Source: a virus
Taxonomy: Duplodnaviria > Heunggongvirae > Uroviricota > Caudoviricetes
DNA length: 35,094 nt
Reading direction: 5' to 3' (one strand)
Virus record (IMG/VR): IMGVR_UViG_2541047854_000004
In this document: piece by piece, positions 4,888 to 9,092 of the stretch
How the letters are laid out: each line of letters starts with the position of its first letter
How positions within the stretch are numbered: position 1 is the stretch's first letter
Notes under the pieces: model-generated
What the model was told of the DNA's origin: nothing
Database searches by the model: none
Seen by the model: only the letters and a program-made list of their open reading frames with translations
Translations under genes and position numbers: made by a program

Positions 4888-5805
4888 TTAAGTTGTTGGA
4901 TTTTGGCTTTTATCTTCTTTGTAAGAAAGAAGGTCACACATCAAATTAACTACCTTGCTGAATTGGAAAAGGTCAGCGCCAGTCTGATGACGCCACTGGA
5001 ATGCTTTATCATCTTCATCATTAAATGTCTGAGATTGAGTATTGATGCGCGAAAAATGGAAATTTTCGGTAAGAATGAAGGTCACACCGCAACCGGATAA
5101 CTCCATTTTATCAGCAGTGAAACTACTACTAAGGCTATCGGCCAGTTCGCTTTGAATTGACTCATGCTCAGCTGAGTAGCGAATAATTTCCTTTTGATCT
5201 GCGTAGCGTGATAGCTGAATATAATTTCCGACAGTGAATCCTTCAAATGCATTGGCTGCACCATTGATGTAGTTATTCAGGCGTGTAGTCAGTCCATTCT
5301 TGATATCACTGATGTTGATTGTTTCTGTTTTCACTGAACCGACAACCTTAATCAGCATTGCGCATACCATACCGGCTATTATTTTATTGGTTGTGTTGAT
5401 TACCAATAATTTCTCATCAGTGCTGTACAATGCAAGAATCAGCGTAGACTTAACAAATGCCTGTTTGCATAGATCTACTCGTACGTTATCAATAATGGCC
5501 AGTCGTTCGGCACGCTTTAATTTATTCCCGGACATATTTTCGATTGTTTGGATTCGAGAATTAGCTTCTTTCATGACGACATGTCGGGGAATTATTTTCT
5601 GATCATGACGGATTACCATTGCGTACCCACCAGATATCGGAGTTACCAGTTCACCAGTGACAGGATTCTCTACAAAAGAGGACCGTGAAAATTCTGTTTC
5701 CCCGATTTCAGAATAAGGGAGTTCGAGAAGATGACCTTCAATAGCCTGTATACTAGGTAATGTTGCTCGGTACACAATTGCGTTACGAAATTTTGGTAAT
5801 TTCAT
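4888..5805 (-). CDS. RdgC-like recombination-associated protein
   Basis: About 305 aa from the ATG with GAGG RBS (MKLPKFRNAIVYRATLPS...), matching the size and N-terminal FKN.MVYR-type motif of RdgC as I recall it. ORF-track start at 5955 is an unsupported extension. Gene is AT-rich. Confidence 0.65.
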   Translation of the reverse strand: MKLPKFRNAIVYRATLPSIQAIEGHLLELPYSEIGETEFSRSSFVENPVTGELVTPISGGYAMVIRHDQKIIPRHVVMKEANSRIQTIENMSGNKLKRAERLAIIDNVRVDLCKQAFVKSTLILALYSTDEKLLVINTTNKIIAGMVCAMLIKVVGSVKTETINISDIKNGLTTRLNNYINGAANAFEGFTVGNYIQLSRYADQKEIIRYSAEHESIQSELADSLSSSFTADKMELSGCGVTFILTENFHFSRINTQSQTFNDEDDKAFQWRHQTGADLFQFSKVVNLMCDLLSYKEDKSQNPTT

Positions 5806-6262
5806 TCTATTTTCCTCTGCACAATGTATTAGTTTCTCCACAAAACAGAGAAGAACACCTGCGGTGGCAGCCGCCCGGATGGATTGGGTTATGAGCCCGT
5901 CGTCCGGTGATGCTCTTCTCTGTTTTGTAAAAAGAGCGGTACCAGCCGGAAGCAAGTGTACAAACTGGTACCGCCAAAGCAGTGGCTGTTGTGGTGACCG
6001 GTGCTGATCTCCGGCTTGCGGTTATTTCAGACTCTCACGGGCGTTTAATTGCCCCGCCGAACAGCTCTTTTCCGCAATAGCTGCAATGTCTTTCGCGCAT
6101 CAGCCTGCGCATTCACCACAACGCTAAGGATTCTCTCTGGTTGAAAATACTTAGCTGTTATGTGCCTGCTTTTAGCCACATCAGGCGAGGTGGACCTGGT
6201 TATTCCCCAACAACAAGGATTTGGTTATTATGTAACCCTCCCCAACAACGATAAGGATTTAT

Positions 6263-6352
6263 ATGGATCTATGTGTAGATAAGTATGAGGAGAGGCATGT
6301 GCCGTTAAGACAAAAGCCTCCAGTTCCTCCAAAACCACCCAAGGAAAACTGA
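6263..6352 (+). CDS. Micro-ORF 1, 29 aa, MDLCVDKYEERHVPLRQKPPVPPKPPKEN
   Basis: AAGGA 5 nt upstream of the ATG; stop 7 nt before the ATG of the membrane-protein gene; C-terminal Pro/Lys tract shared with micro-ORFs 2 and 3. Confidence 0.4.
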   Translation: MDLCVDKYEERHVPLRQKPPVPPKPPKEN

Positions 6353-6359
6353 GACTAAT

Positions 6360-6854
6360 ATGACCAGAGACGATTATAAATTTTATGTTCACTACTCTTA
6401 TGTATTGGAGAAGATGAATTACACGTTGTTAACTCGCATTGATAAATTAATAACGTTGATGTTAATCGTTCTCGGTTTTTCAGTTTTCGCCCCGTACAGT
6501 AATTTATTTATTTTCGGTTTGTTTGTTGCCGTACTTTCGGTTCTTCAGTTGGTCTATCAGTTTGGCCAAGAGGCTGGAATGTCTAAAGAGCAAGCGAGGC
6601 ATTACAAAAGACTGCTGATTGAGTCTGATACCCTTCCTGAAGATCAGTTGCAAGCTAGGTATTTAAAAATCCAAGATACTGATAGTAATCCATGGAAATC
6701 ACTTGAACGAGCGGCTTTCATTCGGGCCTGTATTTTTGCTGGTGTTCCAACTAAGTACGATTTAACAACCAAAGAAAAATTTATAGCTTGGTGTGCGGGA
6801 GATCTACCTCTAGAGAATGAACTAACGGATATTAATGATGACCAACAAGCATAA
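6360..6854 (+). CDS. Two-TM membrane protein, 164 aa; candidate superinfection-exclusion or abortive-infection effector
   Basis: Two adjacent hydrophobic helices (LITLMLIVLGFSVFA and LFIFGLFVAVLSVLQLV) then a charged ~100-aa domain; AT-rich codon usage unlike flanking phage genes; position equivalent to sieB/rex-type morons. Function is inference. Confidence 0.6.
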   Translation: MTRDDYKFYVHYSYVLEKMNYTLLTRIDKLITLMLIVLGFSVFAPYSNLFIFGLFVAVLSVLQLVYQFGQEAGMSKEQARHYKRLLIESDTLPEDQLQARYLKIQDTDSNPWKSLERAAFIRACIFAGVPTKYDLTTKEKFIAWCAGDLPLENELTDINDDQQA

Positions 6855-6909
6855 TCCAGTTCACGGACATGTACCTCCGAAGCCGAAACCACCGAAACCG
6901 AAGAAATGA
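6835..6909 (+). CDS. Micro-ORF 2, 24 aa, MMTNKHNPVHGHVPPKPKPPKPKK
   Basis: Starts inside the 3' end of the membrane gene in another frame; weak RBS; C-terminal tract paralogous to micro-ORF 1. Confidence 0.3.
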   Translation: MMTNKHNPVHGHVPPKPKPPKPKK

Positions 6910-6928
6910 GACATAATAGGATTGGATA

Positions 6929-6997
6929 ATGAGTCGACCAATAGAGCCTTTTCATATTCCACCTCGTCCCAGGCCACCAGATCCAGGCCCAAAGTGA
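6929..6997 (+). CDS. Micro-ORF 3, 22 aa, MSRPIEPFHIPPRPRPPDPGPK
   Basis: AGGA 7 nt upstream of the ATG; Pro/Arg-rich tract; followed by an intrinsic terminator. Confidence 0.4.
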   Translation: MSRPIEPFHIPPRPRPPDPGPK

Positions 6998-7020
6998 GGG
7001 TTACTGATTTTTAAAGAGCG

Positions 7021-7044
7021 AAGCGTCCGGTAGGGCGCTTTTTT
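7021..7044 (+). terminator. Rho-independent terminator closing the plus-strand island
   Basis: Stem AAGCGTCC / GGGCGCTT (one G-U pair), tetraloop GGTA, then T6. Confidence 0.5.
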
Positions 7045-7159
7045 GGTACTAACGAATCATCCTGGACTTCATATGCCCCAGGCGGCTACTTCGTGGGCGT
7101 CCTGCCTGTTCGTTATCTTTGATATAAAATCTAACTTAACTTAGTTTTAATGGCAAGAG

Positions 7160-7191
7160 AAAACACCAAACTTTTCTTAGTTCGGTGTTTT
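7160..7191 (-). terminator. Putative terminator downstream of the repressor gene (minus strand)
   Basis: AT-rich 12-bp stem AAAACACCAAAC / GTTCGGTGTTTT (one mismatch), U-rich 3' arm on the minus-strand transcript, about 20 nt after the cI stop. Confidence 0.35.
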
Positions 7192-7210
7192 GGTTAGAGA
7201 AAAGGGGGGG

Positions 7211-7837
7211 CTAGAGTTCGTATTGAACTCCTTTGACTACACCAATGATGAGGCAATTACCATTGATCGGGATGTTGGGGTACCGGGGATTTAATGGCAC
7301 TAAAAACTTTTGAGGGCCATCGATAACTAATTTTTTTACTGTGGCTTCGTTTGTTCCATCAAGTCTAGCGATGACTATTTTTCCATGCCGGGGTTCTGCA
7401 TCAGGATCTACAATCACTGTTGCGCCTTCTGGTATTGTTGGGAGGCCGTTAGGGTTAGTCATGGAGTCGCCTTTAACCTCCAATGCAAATGAGTTATCAC
7501 CAATCTTTAATGATGTATCTACCCACTTGTCTACTTCACTAAACACTTCTGCTGTCCTGCACTCAGTAAACTGCCCAGCCTGAACCCACGAGATTACAGG
7601 AACTCTGCGCATGTTTGTGACGAGTTTGCCTTCAAACTCCGCACCATAAAGAATGTAATCTATTGACGTATTGAAGAACTTCGCTAATTTTGAAAGTGCT
7701 TCCCCACCAGGGACATTGATGTCTTTCTCCCAGTACCCCACAGCAACGTCACTTACTCCACAAAATTTACCCAATTCTTTCTGGGACGTTCTGGTAACTC
7801 TTCTCAGAGCTTTTATACGCTGACCAACCGTTTCCAT
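7211..7837 (-). CDS. cI: CI-like prophage repressor (N-terminal HTH, C-terminal S24 LexA-type autopeptidase)
   Basis: N-terminal HTH (QKELGKFCGVSDVAVGYWE); C-terminal domain with the Ser nucleophile in GDSM and a downstream Lys (KGDSMTNPNG ... VKKLV); divergent from cro. Confidence 0.9.
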   Translation of the reverse strand: METVGQRIKALRRVTRTSQKELGKFCGVSDVAVGYWEKDINVPGGEALSKLAKFFNTSIDYILYGAEFEGKLVTNMRRVPVISWVQAGQFTECRTAEVFSEVDKWVDTSLKIGDNSFALEVKGDSMTNPNGLPTIPEGATVIVDPDAEPRHGKIVIARLDGTNEATVKKLVIDGPQKFLVPLNPRYPNIPINGNCLIIGVVKGVQYEL

Positions 7838-7934
7838 AGGAGCACCATTTCTTTAATTACTAAGTAATCTTAGTTTTTATTGACCTAAGATAGATTGATA
7901 ATTAACATCTAATAAAACTTAGTTTGGAGGGCAT
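7838..7934. promoter_or_regulatory. Immunity switch region (oR-like) between cI and cro
   Basis: Perfect 13-bp palindrome ATTACTAAGTAAT (7856-7868); two CTTAGTTT copies (7869-7876, 7918-7925); candidate rightward promoter -35 TTGACC (7880-7885), 17-bp spacer, -10 TAACAT (7903-7908); GGAGG RBS before the cro ATG. Confidence 0.5.
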
Positions 7935-8135
7935 ATGACGACTGACGATATCGAAAGCTACTTCGGCAGCATTGAGAAAGTTGCTGCTTTTTTCGGCATA
8001 ACAACTGAAGCCGTTTATCAGTGGCGAAACCGTCCTGGCCAGTTAATTCCAAAAGGACGTGCAGCAGAGGCTGCATATAGAACTTGCGGACGGTTGCCAT
8101 TTAAACCTGAGCTTTATGAAAAATCTAATGGATAA
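7935..8135 (+). CDS. cro: Cro-like small HTH regulator
   Basis: 66-aa ORF divergent from cI; HTH-like segment VAAFFGITTEAVYQWRN; GGAGG RBS. Confidence 0.75.
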   Translation: MTTDDIESYFGSIEKVAAFFGITTEAVYQWRNRPGQLIPKGRAAEAAYRTCGRLPFKPELYEKSNG

Positions 8136-8757
8136 ATCGATTTACAGAAACCACAGATATGAGGGCTTAAACGTGGGTAAAGAACCTGAATGGAAAGTTG
8201 ATAAGCAACCAGCATGGCTGGTGGCAGCAATACGAAGAACGATTGCTGATTTACCTCATGGCTATGAGGAAGCAGCAGAAATTCTTGGTTTGTATAAATC
8301 TGATGATATCACCCCAGCAAAAGATCAATTGCATAACAGACTGCGTAGCGGTGGGGATCAAATTTTTCCACTTGAGTGGGCCATGGTTTTACAGGATGCC
8401 AGTGGTACCAGGCATGTAACGGATGCAATAGCCCGTCGTAGTAATGGGGTGTTTGTGCCGCTGGTGGTCATTGATGACATTGACAATGGTGACATTAATC
8501 AGCGGCTGATGGAGTCAATAGAATGGATTGGCAAGCATTCCCAGTACTTACGCAAGGCAACTGCTGATGGAGTTATTGACCAGGCTGAGCGTGAGCAAAT
8601 CGAAGAGAACAGCTACCAAGTAATGGCGAAGTGGCAGGAGCATTTAACACTGTTATTTCGTGTTTTTTGTGCGCCGGAAAAGAGTAACGCCCGCGAGTGT
8701 GCAGCTCCGGGCGTCGTGGCGTCGATTGCTTCTGGTTGTGGAGAAACTAACGCATGA
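8116..8757 (+). CDS. CII-like / YdaT-like phage regulatory protein
   Basis: About 213 aa directly after cro (switch-region synteny). Start ambiguous between the ATGs at 8116 and 8128; the ORF-track start at 8059 overlaps cro. Family call from memory, moderate. Confidence 0.55.
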
Positions 8758-9092
8758 ACAGTTTAACAACACACTACCGTCGCTCGCAACTGATTGCGCT
8801 TCCTGTACCGGGTGGAAAAGCGAAGGTGGAGTATTGCTATGCAGTGAATGTACCAGGTGACAGGGAAATTGTAACCCACAGCTTTGCAGAGTGGGCTGTG
8901 GGTGATTTCAACCGGCAGAAGGAGACAGTCCTTTGCGACAAGTTAACCGCTGGTTCAAAGATCACCACGGAGTGCCCGTCAGAGTCATTCGTTGGGAGCC
9001 GGAAACACAACGGGTTATCTACCTCCGTGAAGGCTATGAACATGAATGCTTCAGCCCACTTGAGCATTTCAGGCAAAAGTTCAGGGAGATAA
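8754..9092 (+). CDS. Uncertain ORF; N-terminal ~60 codons protein-like, remainder probably not coding
   Basis: ATG overlaps the upstream stop (ATGA), but the second half reads as low-quality sequence and overlaps the better-supported 8933-9124 frame. Confidence 0.3.

Follow-up and report, generated by a model that had tools for sequence, protein, structure and literature searches.

Layout of the operon and its surroundings

The stretch of DNA analyzed here (the window, 35,094 nucleotides) belongs to an E. coli prophage and carries a small plus-strand operon composed of a gene for a protein with two transmembrane helices (2TM) and proline-rich micro-ORFs. The upstream micro-ORF, uORF1 (6263-6352, plus strand), encodes a 29-aa peptide, MDLCVDKYEERHVPLRQKPPVPPKPPKEN, the family's universal leader, and its TGA is followed after 7 nt by the ATG of the 2TM gene. 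The latter (6360-6854, plus strand) encodes a 164-aa inner-membrane protein listed in RefSeq as WP_001513551.1 ("hypothetical protein") and assigned to phrog_6315. Two downstream micro-ORFs follow: dORF2 (6835-6909, plus strand), which is read in the +1 frame, overlaps the 2TM stop by 20 nt and encodes a basic 24-aa peptide, MMTNKHNPVHGHVPPKPKPPKPKK, and dORF3 (6929-6997, plus strand), which encodes a 22-aa peptide of the "PIEPFH" subfamily, MSRPIEPFHIPPRPRPPDPGPK. The positions of the four ORFs agreed exactly with those in the original prediction, which had been made by a model from the letters of the sequence, as did the 7-nt interval between the uORF1 stop and the 2TM start. The good ribosome-binding sites that it had assigned to the first and third micro-ORFs were also found, as a Shine–Dalgarno (SD) sequence AAGGA 5 nt before uORF1 and AGGA (6918-6921) 7 nt before dORF3; dORF2 is preceded by merely GGA. 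RefSeq annotates the 164-aa gene alone, without the micro-ORFs, and a 103-aa ORF on the opposite strand overlaps 6644-6955.

The operon ends in an intrinsic terminator (7020-7046, plus strand), again as predicted, with a 9-bp stem of -14.2 kcal/mol followed by U6 on the plus strand, compared with -7.6 kcal/mol and a poor U tract on the minus strand. Because a G·U pair of the plus strand turns into a C·A mismatch on the minus strand, this terminator is effectively unidirectional. The region had also been described as a visibly AT-rich island; its GC content (0.39-0.41 across 6150-6900) is indeed lower than that of 5850-6150 (0.54) but about equal to that of rdgC (0.40) and the repressor gene (0.42-0.46).

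A conserved leader/promoter region (6164-6262, plus strand) lies upstream of uORF1. In this region, GCCTG (6164-6168)...CAGGC (6182-6186) overlaps CCAC (6176-6179)...GTGG (6190-6193), and two direct repeats of TCCCCAACAAC (6204-6214 and 6239-6249; repeats D5, D6 and D12) are each followed by AAGGATT, the second repeat supplying the SD of uORF1 (AAGGA, 6253-6257). A third copy of the repeat is present at 6110-6132, and the repeat also occurs in a Providencia phage and in locus L074. The leader region was near-invariant in an alignment of 18 loci whose proteins are only ~60% identical. RNAalifold yielded a 5-bp stem with one covarying pair, too little for an RNA element, and an Rfam scan of 5000-9000 at E<=1 returned nothing. 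A sigma-70 scan detected no consensus promoter for the operon, the best candidate being the non-consensus TTCCCC-N17-TATTAT (6203-6231).

On the far side of the terminator, OL operator(s) and a pL-like promoter (TTGCCA-17-TAGATT) were located at 7125-7156 on the minus strand, firing leftward and antisense through the whole operon. This segment shares CTAAnnnnnnTTAG with two sites between cI and cro (7854-7884 and 7903-7933; repeat family D1), and the promoter is probably pL. It is followed by a terminator hairpin that lies after the repressor gene (7160-7191, minus strand; inverted repeat I4, with 13-nt arms that are 92% complementary) and by the cI/LexA-like repressor gene itself (7211-7837), which has Peptidase_S24 and HTH_3 domains. 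Since OL/pL is located at 7125-7156, the operon does not occupy the slot of rexAB-type genes, to which it had been assigned. Lambda RexAB and P22/lambda SieB resemble it in being membrane-protein cargo of a lambdoid immunity region that is plausibly expressed in lysogens. However, they share no sequence or profile similarity with the operon products, and the operon, instead of sharing a transcript with cI, lies downstream of pL in antisense orientation to the early-left transcript. Neither Rex nor SieB is known to have micropeptide partners.

In 57 of 76 distinct loci, the nearest long ORF on either side ran in the opposite direction. The neighbors of the 2TM loci are opposite-strand phage early or immunity genes, the micro-ORFs being the only co-oriented partners. 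The slot itself is variable and holds other genes in SfV, SfII, mEp460 and Kati, supporting the view that the operon behaves as a cargo cassette. Its antisense position between pL/OL and the early-left genes, together with the one-way terminator, suggests that the operon is expressed in lysogens and silenced on induction.

Conservation of the micro-ORFs and their coupling to the 2TM gene

A PPxPxPP-type tail shared by three independent frames had been considered unlikely to arise by chance. The six frames of the window contain three PP.P.PP motifs, two of them at the operon, where 0.05 was expected; this ~60-fold excess was not equaled in any of 300 second-order Markov simulations. H[VILMA]PP.P.PP occurred twice in the window against an expectation of 0.0, and stretches with at least 6 Pro per 12 residues numbered 7 against 0.9 expected, three of the seven lying at the operon. 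The shared tails thus exceed chance, as claimed, but the notion of three independent frames understated the relationship, as the peptides form one paralogous family with a universal upstream member.

The original prediction had offered conservation of the micro-ORF frames in homologous loci as its own test, and the frames proved decisively conserved. Of 59 intact homologous loci, 58 had a His/Pro-rich upstream micro-ORF that stopped 7-24 nt ahead of the 2TM start codon (3-24 nt across the family), whereas only 5 of 1475 control ORFs had a comparable upstream micro-ORF. One to three downstream micro-ORFs were found in 62 of 63 lambdoid-type loci, and across loci all micro-ORFs had an ATG start and an SD. 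With pS at 0.64-0.79 throughout, pN/pS was 0.26-0.33 for the downstream micro-ORFs (0.28 for dORF3, from 13 distinct orthologs) and 0.29 for the 2TM gene; the upstream micro-ORF gave 0.49 at a pS of 0.79. Entropy summed over 31 distinct core sequences amounted to 14.2 bits at third codon positions and to 3.3 and 2.6 bits at positions 1 and 2, a pattern that excludes antisense coding. The minus-strand frames gave only three matches, all unrelated. Together, these patterns of conservation show that the micropeptides are protein-coding and under purifying selection, and that the operon is a genuine conserved four-cistron cargo of temperate phages.

The pairing of the 2TM gene with peptides is conserved in temperate phages of many bacteria, and the module is present in 47 of 5426 E. 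coli genomes; lysogens include E. coli SCU-482 and AR_0013. The leader peptide was kept in all homologs checked at 25-37% identity, in Fels-2 (P2-like), Yersinia, Providencia and Pseudomonas-like prophages; the Fels-2 copy of Salmonella LT2 encodes the leader MSDSDNFHVLPRPAPAPKPEPGQDKK. The annotations of Fels-2 and a Yersinia phage are wrong at this locus, placing genes on the opposite strand. Distant 2TM homologs have the leader micro-ORF only, without downstream copies. In the lambdoid Enterobacterales clade, the 2TM gene is followed by basic paralogous micropeptides, one to three in number, and by a one-way terminator. dORF2 is conserved in the 96-100% clade, and other clades carry related HxPPK-type peptides at the same position. 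Natural fusions also occur: the Pectobacterium protein P0013 runs on in frame from the 2TM sequence into a C-terminal dORF3-type motif and ends in ...KMAKPPVDGHIPPRPRPPAPPKAQN, in some loci the 2TM stop codon is the sole separator between the 2TM gene and an in-frame peptide, and two-peptide fusion ORFs exist as well. A peptide-profile search of a 5.8-billion protein set retrieved only two-peptide ORFs, from the same locus type, because this database contains no ORFs under 30 aa; a scan of genome contigs for the operon found three loci only. At the DNA level, 35 of 82 H[VI]PPxPRPP matches in IMG/VR shared their strand with a 2TM gene and lay 500-650 nt past its start, and the remaining 47 were random-frame matches, mostly in high-GC contigs, that agree with the chance estimate. 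By this distribution, the peptide motif is shown to occur only together with the 2TM family.

The peptides share the core H-x-PP-x-P-R-PP, with RPP[D/G/N] in the alleles of the window's clade, and conserved N-terminal motifs (PIEPFH, IIPNH and GPRPDS). The downstream peptides are 21-31 aa long and net basic, and almost always have K or R 2-6 residues past the proline tract; the upstream peptide is acidic or neutral and far more divergent. Some variants have 19-32 additional C-terminal residues or are fused.

The coupling of uORF1 to the 2TM gene, suspected from the window alone, turned out to be a family-wide arrangement that includes overlap of the leader stop with the SD of the 2TM gene: in 19 of 36 distinct sequences, the stop lies within the SD as TGAGGT. 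This arrangement shows, at the level of gene organization, that the leader micropeptide is translationally coupled to the 2TM gene. We found no SD-sequestering hairpin at the leader/2TM junction (-1.2 kcal/mol), which makes classical stall-induced unmasking unlikely. A programmed frameshift appending a peptide to the 2TM protein was also considered and rejected, since the frame of the first downstream ORF varies (0, +1 and +2) and most downstream ORFs have their own ATG and SD past the stop.

The proline tracts may bear on ribosome transit. EF-P-dependent stalling is promoted by R or H before PPP and by D, N, G or W after PP (PMC4176338). By these rules, the R-PP-[D/G/N/A/Q] and H-x-PP motifs of the downstream peptides are stall-promoting contexts, and many upstream peptides contain PPP or PPPP (for example, EPPPKP, TPPPPA and IPPPPPKP), suggesting that translation of the peptide tracts is EF-P dependent. 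Polyproline/EF-P leaders such as the CadC PPP motif likewise combine a short upstream ORF, PP/PPP in stall-promoting contexts and a placement suited to ribosome-transit control; mgtP, TnaC and SecM are other arrest or regulatory leaders. Unlike these, the present operon has no attenuator or SD-masking hairpin, and members of the same peptide family are also encoded after the regulated gene and at times fused to its product. The literature contained no description of an EF-P-type leader for phage cargo genes, and searches by motif, accession, PHROG number and SLATT/EF-P themes retrieved no description of the 2TM–peptide system; the pairing thus appears to be unreported.

The 2TM protein and its relation to SLATT and defense families

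Two adjacent hydrophobic helices followed by a charged domain of ~100 aa had been read from the sequence of the 164-aa protein. Hydropathy analysis agreed with this, placing the helices at ~30-48 and 47-67 with a short APYSN loop between them and positively charged flanks (RIDK and KEQARHYKR); the charged C-domain comprises 96 residues. An AF2 model contained a hairpin of two 40-residue helices (3-42 and 49-88). From N to C terminus, the predicted architecture runs from an amphipathic helix through the 2TM hairpin to a helical C-domain in the cytoplasm; F8, Y12 and W112 belong to a conserved surface. Among 1.84 billion representatives, the family accounts for 220 clusters at 50% identity; the matches listed are small single-domain proteins, typically of ~150-180 aa.

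Searches of Pfam and NCBIfam gave no match for any of the four operon products (none at E<=1 for the 2TM protein), in keeping with the expectation that the latter would not fall into a well-characterized housekeeping family. PADLOC-DB likewise gave 0 matches for all four products, and in PHROGs the 2TM protein matched only families 6315 and 23697, both of unknown function; no match to RexA/RexB, SieB, an Abi protein or another described defense family emerged from these two databases. A sequence-profile search of the PDB with the 2TM protein found nothing below E 0.16, and a Foldseek search of the PDB with the model gave only generic helical hairpins (best E 0.9). Judged by these searches, the 2TM protein is an orphan, and its family is uncharacterized.

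A comparison with SLATT had been suggested, and here a weak resemblance was found, confined to the level of the fold. SLATT proteins, which have been described as predicted pore-forming toxins, are effectors of DRT10. In a Foldseek search of BFVD, 7 of the top 13 hits were SLATT-annotated with best probabilities of 0.84-0.92, but these hits are statistically weak (E 0.18-1.2, TM 0.45-0.50). By hydropathy and the AF2 model, the 2TM protein has the organization of a SLATT protein, that is, a small module with a cytoplasmic helix followed by two adjacent TM helices. Like the SLATT effectors of CBASS-like systems, DRT3 and DRT10, it is small, has an N-terminal helix and a 2TM hairpin, resides on mobile elements or prophages and has a closely coupled partner gene. 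Profiles, however, did not support the relationship. The 2TM protein matches no SLATT model in Pfam or NCBIfam, the SLATT Pfam domain was present in 0 of 122 profile matches, and among 105 divergent family members searched with SLATT HMMs only two matched SLATT_4 and two SLATT_fungal, at E 0.04-0.08, below the cutoffs. UniRef names label two family proteins (P0023 and P0048) "SLATT," and neither has a SLATT profile match at E<=10. Unlike those of SLATT effectors, the 2TM loci are also without a nucleotide-generating enzyme, reverse transcriptase or SLOG/SMODS, and the partners are proline-rich peptides of 20-35 aa.

Possible roles of the operon and its peptides

Position, orientation and the weak fold hint lead us to propose tentatively, and with somewhat less than even confidence, that the operon serves the prophage in exclusion or abortive infection, with a SLATT-like membrane-perturbing effector governed or partnered by coupled polyproline peptides. 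According to this proposal, the operon would have a promoter of its own, active as long as cI keeps pL repressed, and convergent, antisense transcription from pL would silence it upon prophage induction. The 2TM protein would be the SLATT-like membrane-perturbing effector, shielding the lysogen from superinfecting phage through abortive infection or exclusion. On their way through the leader, ribosomes would have to pass EF-P-dependent PP/PPP motifs before terminating at the stop inside the 2TM SD, so that effector synthesis would be set by ribosome transit. Once released, the peptides would partner or inhibit the 2TM protein from its cytoplasmic face, a role suggested by the natural C-terminal fusion; in an AF2 model of that fusion, the Pro-rich tail was undocked and of low confidence (pLDDT 47-61). 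The conserved N-terminal peptide motifs are not explained by stalling alone. If the proposal holds, the operon represents an unrecognized prophage-immunity architecture, in which a membrane effector has obligate, unannotated polyproline peptide partners of 20-35 residues. The operon also reveals an entire family of conserved micro-genes under selection that current annotation misses. It would further illustrate a design principle whereby cargo placed antisense to an early operon is expressed only during prophage dormancy.

A possible, though rather doubtful, alternative is that the micro-ORFs are purely cis-acting translational devices, the leader serving coupling or EF-P/proline sensing and the 3' ORFs retaining ribosomes along the end of the mRNA. 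In that case, the 2TM protein would be a lysogenic-conversion factor without toxicity, perhaps one that excludes superinfecting phage by blocking injection, like T4 Imm and HK97 gp15, or would be unrelated to phage defense. The universal stop/SD overlap and 3-24 nt spacing, the PP/PPP motifs in reported stall-promoting contexts and the missing defense-family match are all consistent with such devices, as are the leader-only distant homologs, which imply that the downstream copies are dispensable for core function. Conservation nevertheless extends well past the proline tract, with downstream subfamilies kept at pN/pS ~0.27, no regulatory hairpin is present, and the in-frame 2TM fusion and two-peptide fusions suggest that the products matter. 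Almost no weight can be given to the idea that the tracts are non-coding, whether a product of chance or composition, a DNA/RNA repeat or the shadow of an opposite-strand gene. The very small size of the ORFs, their lack of annotation in RefSeq, the 103-aa antisense ORF (6644-6955) and the opposite-strand genes called in Fels-2 and a Yersinia phage might seem to favor it. A chance, compositional or antisense-gene origin is refuted, however, by the motif excess over simulations, the conserved ATG and SD, variation falling mostly at third codon positions and a pN/pS equal to that of the 2TM gene; moreover, the amino-acid motif is kept while codons differ, and the minus-strand frames are not conserved. 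A lysis function, with a holin-like 2TM protein and Rz1-like proline-rich partners, is likewise highly improbable. Class II holins have two TM helices, Rz1 is described as proline-rich, and a faint match to phrog_1026 ("Rz-like spanin," E 0.42) was seen. The operon, however, lies in the immunity/early region rather than in a lysis cassette (in the window and in lambdoid and P2-like relatives), is oriented opposite to lytic transcription and encodes peptides with neither a signal peptide nor a lipobox Cys, and a spanin/holin identity was therefore rejected.

[quoted passage not shown] The pharmacophore of Type I PrAMPs (oncocin, pyrrhocoricin and Bac7) is an aromatic-aliphatic-P-R-P-R-P-P segment, as in oncocin, with a Y-L-P-R-P core that binds the tunnel in reverse. 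The phage core H-[VI]-P-P-[KR]-P-R-P-P resembles it in having an aromatic residue or His, an aliphatic residue and Pro before (R/K)-P-R-P-P, and it contains the string PRPRPP, which is common to oncocin and Api137 and, across 8 million papers, essentially confined to work on them. The oncocin-like resemblance noted from the window thus stands for Y-L-P-RPRPP against H-V-P-P-RPRPP, but only as a lead, as the phage peptides contain an additional Pro and replace Tyr with His, and their universal upstream member is acidic or neutral and much more divergent. Type II PrAMPs such as apidaecin trap release factor on post-release ribosomes and cause readthrough of stop codons. Their pharmacophore is the C-terminal octapeptide PRPPHPRL with its penultimate Arg and C-terminal Leu (PMC11549390). 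With these PrAMPs, the phage peptides have in common that they are short, unstructured peptides with PRPPxP near the C terminus, and their length fits the exit tunnel in nascent-chain orientation. In the downstream peptides, a basic end 2-6 residues past the tract would place the core in the upper tunnel at termination, and conservation of the whole peptide, including PIEPFH/IIPNH, fits a specific binding surface. The likeness to apidaecin that had been claimed fails, however, at its defining feature, the C-terminal Arg-Leu warhead that contacts RF and tRNA (PMC11549390): the phage peptides end in PRPPDPGPK, PRPPQPGK or PRPPAPKG, and their last two residues are PK (11), KK (8), GK (7) or PR (4) and never RL, so that G-K or P-K takes the place of the warhead. 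The 19-32 extra C-terminal residues or fusion in some variants are also contrary to a strict termination geometry, and a lysogen that made a translation inhibitor constitutively would have to be protected from it in some unexplained way. PrAMPs, moreover, are secreted by an animal host as pre-pro-polyproteins, whereas the phage peptides are made inside the bacterium and have no signal peptide or export leader.

With the same low probability, the micropeptides would be the first prokaryote- or phage-encoded counterparts of PrAMPs, tying the state of translation (EF-P, release factors and phage shut-off) to a SLATT-like effector and thereby forming a novel type of abortive-infection or competition system that senses the ribosome. 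In a variant of this reading, the peptides would leave the cell through the 2TM protein and be taken up again via SbmA, serving as a microcin-like weapon that the phage carries. The operon offers a tractable natural case in which polyproline or PrAMP-like sequences made inside a bacterium meet the ribosome and EF-P, and its copies in Salmonella LT2 Fels-2 and E. coli clinical isolates are experimentally accessible.

The micro-ORFs are coding and selected

The operon lies on the plus strand and comprises a leader micro-ORF (uORF1, 6263–6352, 29 aa), the gene of a 164-aa membrane protein with two TM helices (2TM, 6360–6854), and two downstream micro-ORFs (dORF2, 6835–6909, 24 aa; dORF3, 6929–6997, 22 aa). 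The original prediction had placed all four ORFs correctly, as it had the 7-nt gap between the uORF1 stop and the 2TM ATG. The good ribosome-binding sites claimed for uORF1 (AAGGA at 5 nt) and dORF3 (AGGA at 7 nt) were found, dORF2, which overlaps the 2TM stop, having GGA only, while the supposed AT-rich island proved marginal. That the shared proline motif exceeds chance was borne out, as translating the window in all six frames gives PP.P.PP three times, twice within the operon, against an expectation of 0.05, a count reached in 0 of 300 simulations.

We scanned in six frames the flanks of 71 homologous loci of the 2TM gene, four distant phage records, and five remote relatives. Of the 59 distinct loci whose 5′ flank is intact, 58 have a Pro-rich micro-ORF on the gene strand that ends no more than about 25 nt from the 2TM ATG; the one exception (L068) holds a truncated leader remnant, MLRDDYEQR followed by a stop. 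As a control, we looked at 1475 other ORFs (100 aa or longer) from these loci; just 5 (0.34%) are preceded by a Pro-rich micro-ORF of this kind. Downstream micro-ORFs numbered one in 25 loci, two in 33, three in 4, and none in 1, and the minus-strand frames of the flanks gave only three matches, all unrelated. Nearly all micro-ORFs start with ATG, preceded by an SD at 3–13 nt. The core H-[VIMLA]-P-P-x-P-[RK]-P-P is common to all peptide subfamilies, namely the upstream one ([DY][YF]EE[KR]H[MLV]P..[KQ][RK]P[PE].PPKP, then an acidic tail) and the downstream ones (MS[KR]PIEPFH[VI]PP[RKH]PRPP.PGK; MSKP.PIIPNH[VA]PP[KF]PRPPAP..; ..GPRPDS[HQ][VI]PP[KR]PRP.PRP[KR]; and ..DRH.H[VL]P.[KQ]PRPP.PP.K).

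With synonymous divergence nearly saturated (pS 0.64–0.79), three downstream subfamilies had pooled Nei–Gojobori pN/pS values of 0.28, 0.26, and 0.33; the value was 0.29 for the 2TM gene and 0.49 for the upstream set, which is more divergent. Among 31 distinct core sequences, nucleotide entropy summed to 14.2 bits at third codon positions versus 3.3 at first and 2.6 at second positions, a test that is partly circular because these sequences were chosen by motif. Even so, coding on the opposite strand would be unable to yield this pattern and was ruled out as the source of the core. Together, these results demonstrate that the micro-ORFs are real genes, coding and selected.

The membrane protein and its peptide partners

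As originally described, the 2TM protein has two adjacent hydrophobic helices and a charged C-domain (96 residues). The positively charged flanks of the helices and the short APYSN loop imply an N-in/C-in topology, and the AlphaFold2 model (pLDDT 75, pTM 0.63) pairs two helices of 40 residues each in a hairpin, with four short helices besides. The protein is an orphan: its PHROG family, phrog_6315, is of unknown function, and it has no match in Pfam, NCBIfam, or PADLOC, and gave no informative match in PDB sequence and fold searches. When 1.84 billion representatives were searched exhaustively with a profile, the family came to only 220 clusters and, among the matches listed, the relatives are small single-domain proteins, typically of about 150–180 aa. 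Two relatives bear UniRef names with the label SLATT, a family of two-TM effector domains described as predicted pore-forming toxins and as effectors of DRT10. SLATT HMMs matched only 2 of 105 family members (E 0.04–0.08) and found nothing in the two UniRef-named proteins; the domain was carried by 0 of 122 profile matches. In a BFVD fold search, 7 of the best 13 matches were SLATT-annotated giant-virus proteins, with E values from 0.18 upward and TM scores of 0.45–0.50. Because the label was not reproduced by HMMs and the fold matches are weak, we call the 2TM protein SLATT-like but keep it out of that family: its predicted topology, and possibly its fold, resembles that of SLATT proteins.

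The leader peptide is kept 3–24 nt upstream of the 2TM start in homologs at only 25–37% identity, including those of Fels-2 (MSDSDNFHVLPRPAPAPKPEPGQDKK), Yersinia phage vB_YenM_42.18 (...DFHILHKPAPPEEKKTDDEE), Providencia PSTNGR2lys (...IVPNHLNPKPIRPTPPPPSTPSDGGKK), phage EKP1 (...TPTPPPPTNTSNRGKPKQ), a Pseudomonas-like prophage (...ARKPPQTPTPPPPAEKK), a P2-like prophage (MGNPDHFKRHRPRDPEPPEDEE), and three further relatives. The flanks of these distant loci held no clear downstream peptide copies, which makes the leader–2TM pair the ancestral unit and the basic downstream peptides an expansion in the lambdoid Enterobacterales clade. The pairing is exclusive. Of 82 instances of the back-translated core H[VI]PPxPRPP in IMG/VR, 35 lay on the same strand 500–650 nt downstream of a 2TM gene start; the other 47, about the chance expectation, were random-frame matches without family features, mostly in high-GC contigs.

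In a Pectobacterium homolog (P0013, 4 contigs), a peptide is fused in frame onto the 2TM C-terminus (...KMAKPPVDGHIPPRPRPPAPPKAQN). Two peptides are merged into one ORF at several loci, and at some loci the 2TM stop codon is all that separates the gene from a peptide in its frame. Programmed frameshifting from 2TM into the peptide was ruled out since the frame relation differs between loci. A second kind of natural C-terminal extension, unlike the Pectobacterium fusion, occurs in a 90% identical Enterobacter cloacae homolog (P0002, 186 aa), in which the 2TM stop TAA has become GAA and frame 0 reads through the dORF2 region, giving ...QQAESGSRTCSSEAETTETKELSGK. In Fels-2 (L075, NC_010463 30256–30982), the ‘hypothetical’ STM2733.1 and part of STM2735 are annotated opposite to the 2TM gene and leader, as is vBYenM4218_008 in the Yersinia phage (L076, 2950–3615); these are probably mis-annotations.

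Translational coupling and possible peptide action

The leader stop reads TGAGGT in 19 of 36 distinct leaders, a coupling geometry that places it inside the SD of the 2TM gene. In the conserved core, Arg or His precedes Pro-Pro; in the clade of the window, Asp, Gly, or Asn follows it (alleles RPPD, RPPG, and RPPN in near-identical loci), and many leaders contain PPP or PPPP. All these contexts are reported to promote EF-P–dependent stalling, Asp, Gly, and Asn after Pro-Pro strongly so (PMC4176338), suggesting that ribosomes may stall on the peptides. Since RNA folding revealed no SD-masking hairpin at the leader–2TM junction, we favor a throttled termination–reinitiation coupling from leader to 2TM over stall-induced unmasking. 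The peptide products may also act at the cytoplasmic face of the 2TM protein, an idea backed by the conservation of entire peptides, by the separate basic subfamilies, and by the fusion; in an AlphaFold2 model of the natural fusion, the Pro-rich tail had a pLDDT of 47–61.

The proposed likeness to proline-rich antimicrobial peptides (PrAMPs) appears only partly apt. The string PRPRPP is otherwise found in the literature essentially only in Api137/oncocin. Apidaecin likeness did not stand, as the peptides have only PRPPxP in common with the Type II pharmacophore PRPPHPRL and lack its essential Arg-Leu terminus. No account of this system turned up in some 8 million papers, which were searched by concept and motif as well as by accession and PHROG id. 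A conservative reading would be a prophage-borne membrane-effector cargo, set apart by obligate, translationally coupled polyproline micropeptides. The more adventurous one, that the micropeptides are phage-encoded PrAMP-like ribosome ligands, we consider improbable.

Among loci with 2TM proteins 96–100% identical, the dORF3 codon after RPP (6980–6982) varies between Asp, Gly, and Asn by single-nucleotide changes (L007, L008, and L019), with an Arg-to-His allele beside it in L015; this variation may reflect diversifying selection on stall strength.

Prophage setting and transcription

The window is a lambdoid prophage of E. coli, 5800–7300 being 100% identical to chromosomes of SCU-482 and other strains. 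Around the operon lie rdgC (4888–5805, minus; Pfam RdgC), a LexA/cI-type repressor gene (7211–7837, minus; Peptidase_S24 and HTH_3), and, by Pfam/RefSeq annotation, cro (7935–8135, plus) and a cII-like gene; its sole RefSeq gene encodes the 164-aa ‘hypothetical protein’ WP_001513551.1. The flanks (5830–6130 and about 7040–7114) are common to SfV, SfII, SfIV, mEp460, Kati, and Stx2c phages, which carry other cargo or none between them. The 1.5-kb query was partly matched in 2924 of 5426 complete E. coli genomes, the operon proper in 47, always chromosomal and in single copy. The operon is thus cargo, a cassette occupying a slot whose content varies. Salmonella very commonly carries a branch of the 2TM family with proteins of 158 aa (P0234 and relatives, about 27% identity); a single 90% cluster of this branch comprises 1564 sequences, which makes the family far more widespread in Salmonella than in E. 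coli.

A 31-nt repeat family joins 7125–7155 with operator-like sites at 7854–7884 and 7903–7933, both between cI and cro, the three sharing the core CTAAnnnnnnTTAG. We take the latter pair (7854–7933) as OR and the minus-strand site at 7125–7156, with a promoter-like TTGCCA-17-TAGATT (7156–7128), as OL/pL; the cI gene has a hairpin of its own behind it (7160–7191). Early-left transcription would then start just right of the operon and run antisense through all of it before rdgC. It would meet the operon terminator (7020–7046) in its weak orientation: the predicted plus-strand terminator was confirmed (9-bp stem, −14.2 kcal/mol, then U6), and its minus-strand reading is much weaker (−7.6 kcal/mol, poor U tract). 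Such an inversion is general: in 57 of 76 distinct loci the nearest long ORF on either side is encoded on the other strand, including P2-like prophages with the 2TM gene between cII and replication genes. We infer that the operon is expressed during prophage repression and shut down by convergent transcription on the lytic switch, as expected of a gene that protects the lysogen and spares the phage's own development.

No promoter for the operon emerged from a sigma-70 scan. Conservation in the 100 nt before uORF1 far exceeds that of the coding region; this stretch contains two copies of a TCCCCAACAAC...AAGGATT unit, which the Providencia phage and L074 have as well. The direct repeat YCMCCAACAAC(N0-3)AAGGATT occurs in 2–3 copies upstream of the leader ORF (window 6110–6262; L077, about 1790–1870; L074, about 2310–2375) and is conserved even at about 32–37% protein identity. 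ACAAGGAU resembles the CsrA-binding consensus. In one distant prophage (L168), the 2TM gene has as its direct neighbor a phage gene for a CsrA homolog (59 aa, PF02599). A start-stop ORF, ATGTAA (6230–6235), lies 8 nt downstream of the first leader-repeat AAGGA (6215–6219) in the candidate promoter/5′ region.

An exceptionally stable two-part RNA structure lies at 5836–5980 on the minus strand, in the early-left transcript (MFE −70.5 kcal/mol, z = −7.8; none of 200 shuffles equally stable). A 13-bp hairpin (GCGGUACCAG.../...CUGGUACCGC) followed by UCUUUUU comes first, and after it a branched-tip stem about 23 bp long (arms 5840–5864 and 5904–5928). The structure has no Rfam match and is 95–100% conserved in 49 phage records (mEp460, Stx2/Stx2c phages, SfV, SfII, and cdtI), where it is unannotated or overlaid by a ‘hypothetical protein’, and more distantly in ST64B. 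Since these phages show no N gene between pL and rdgC, it could represent a tL terminator with a put-like antitermination RNA.
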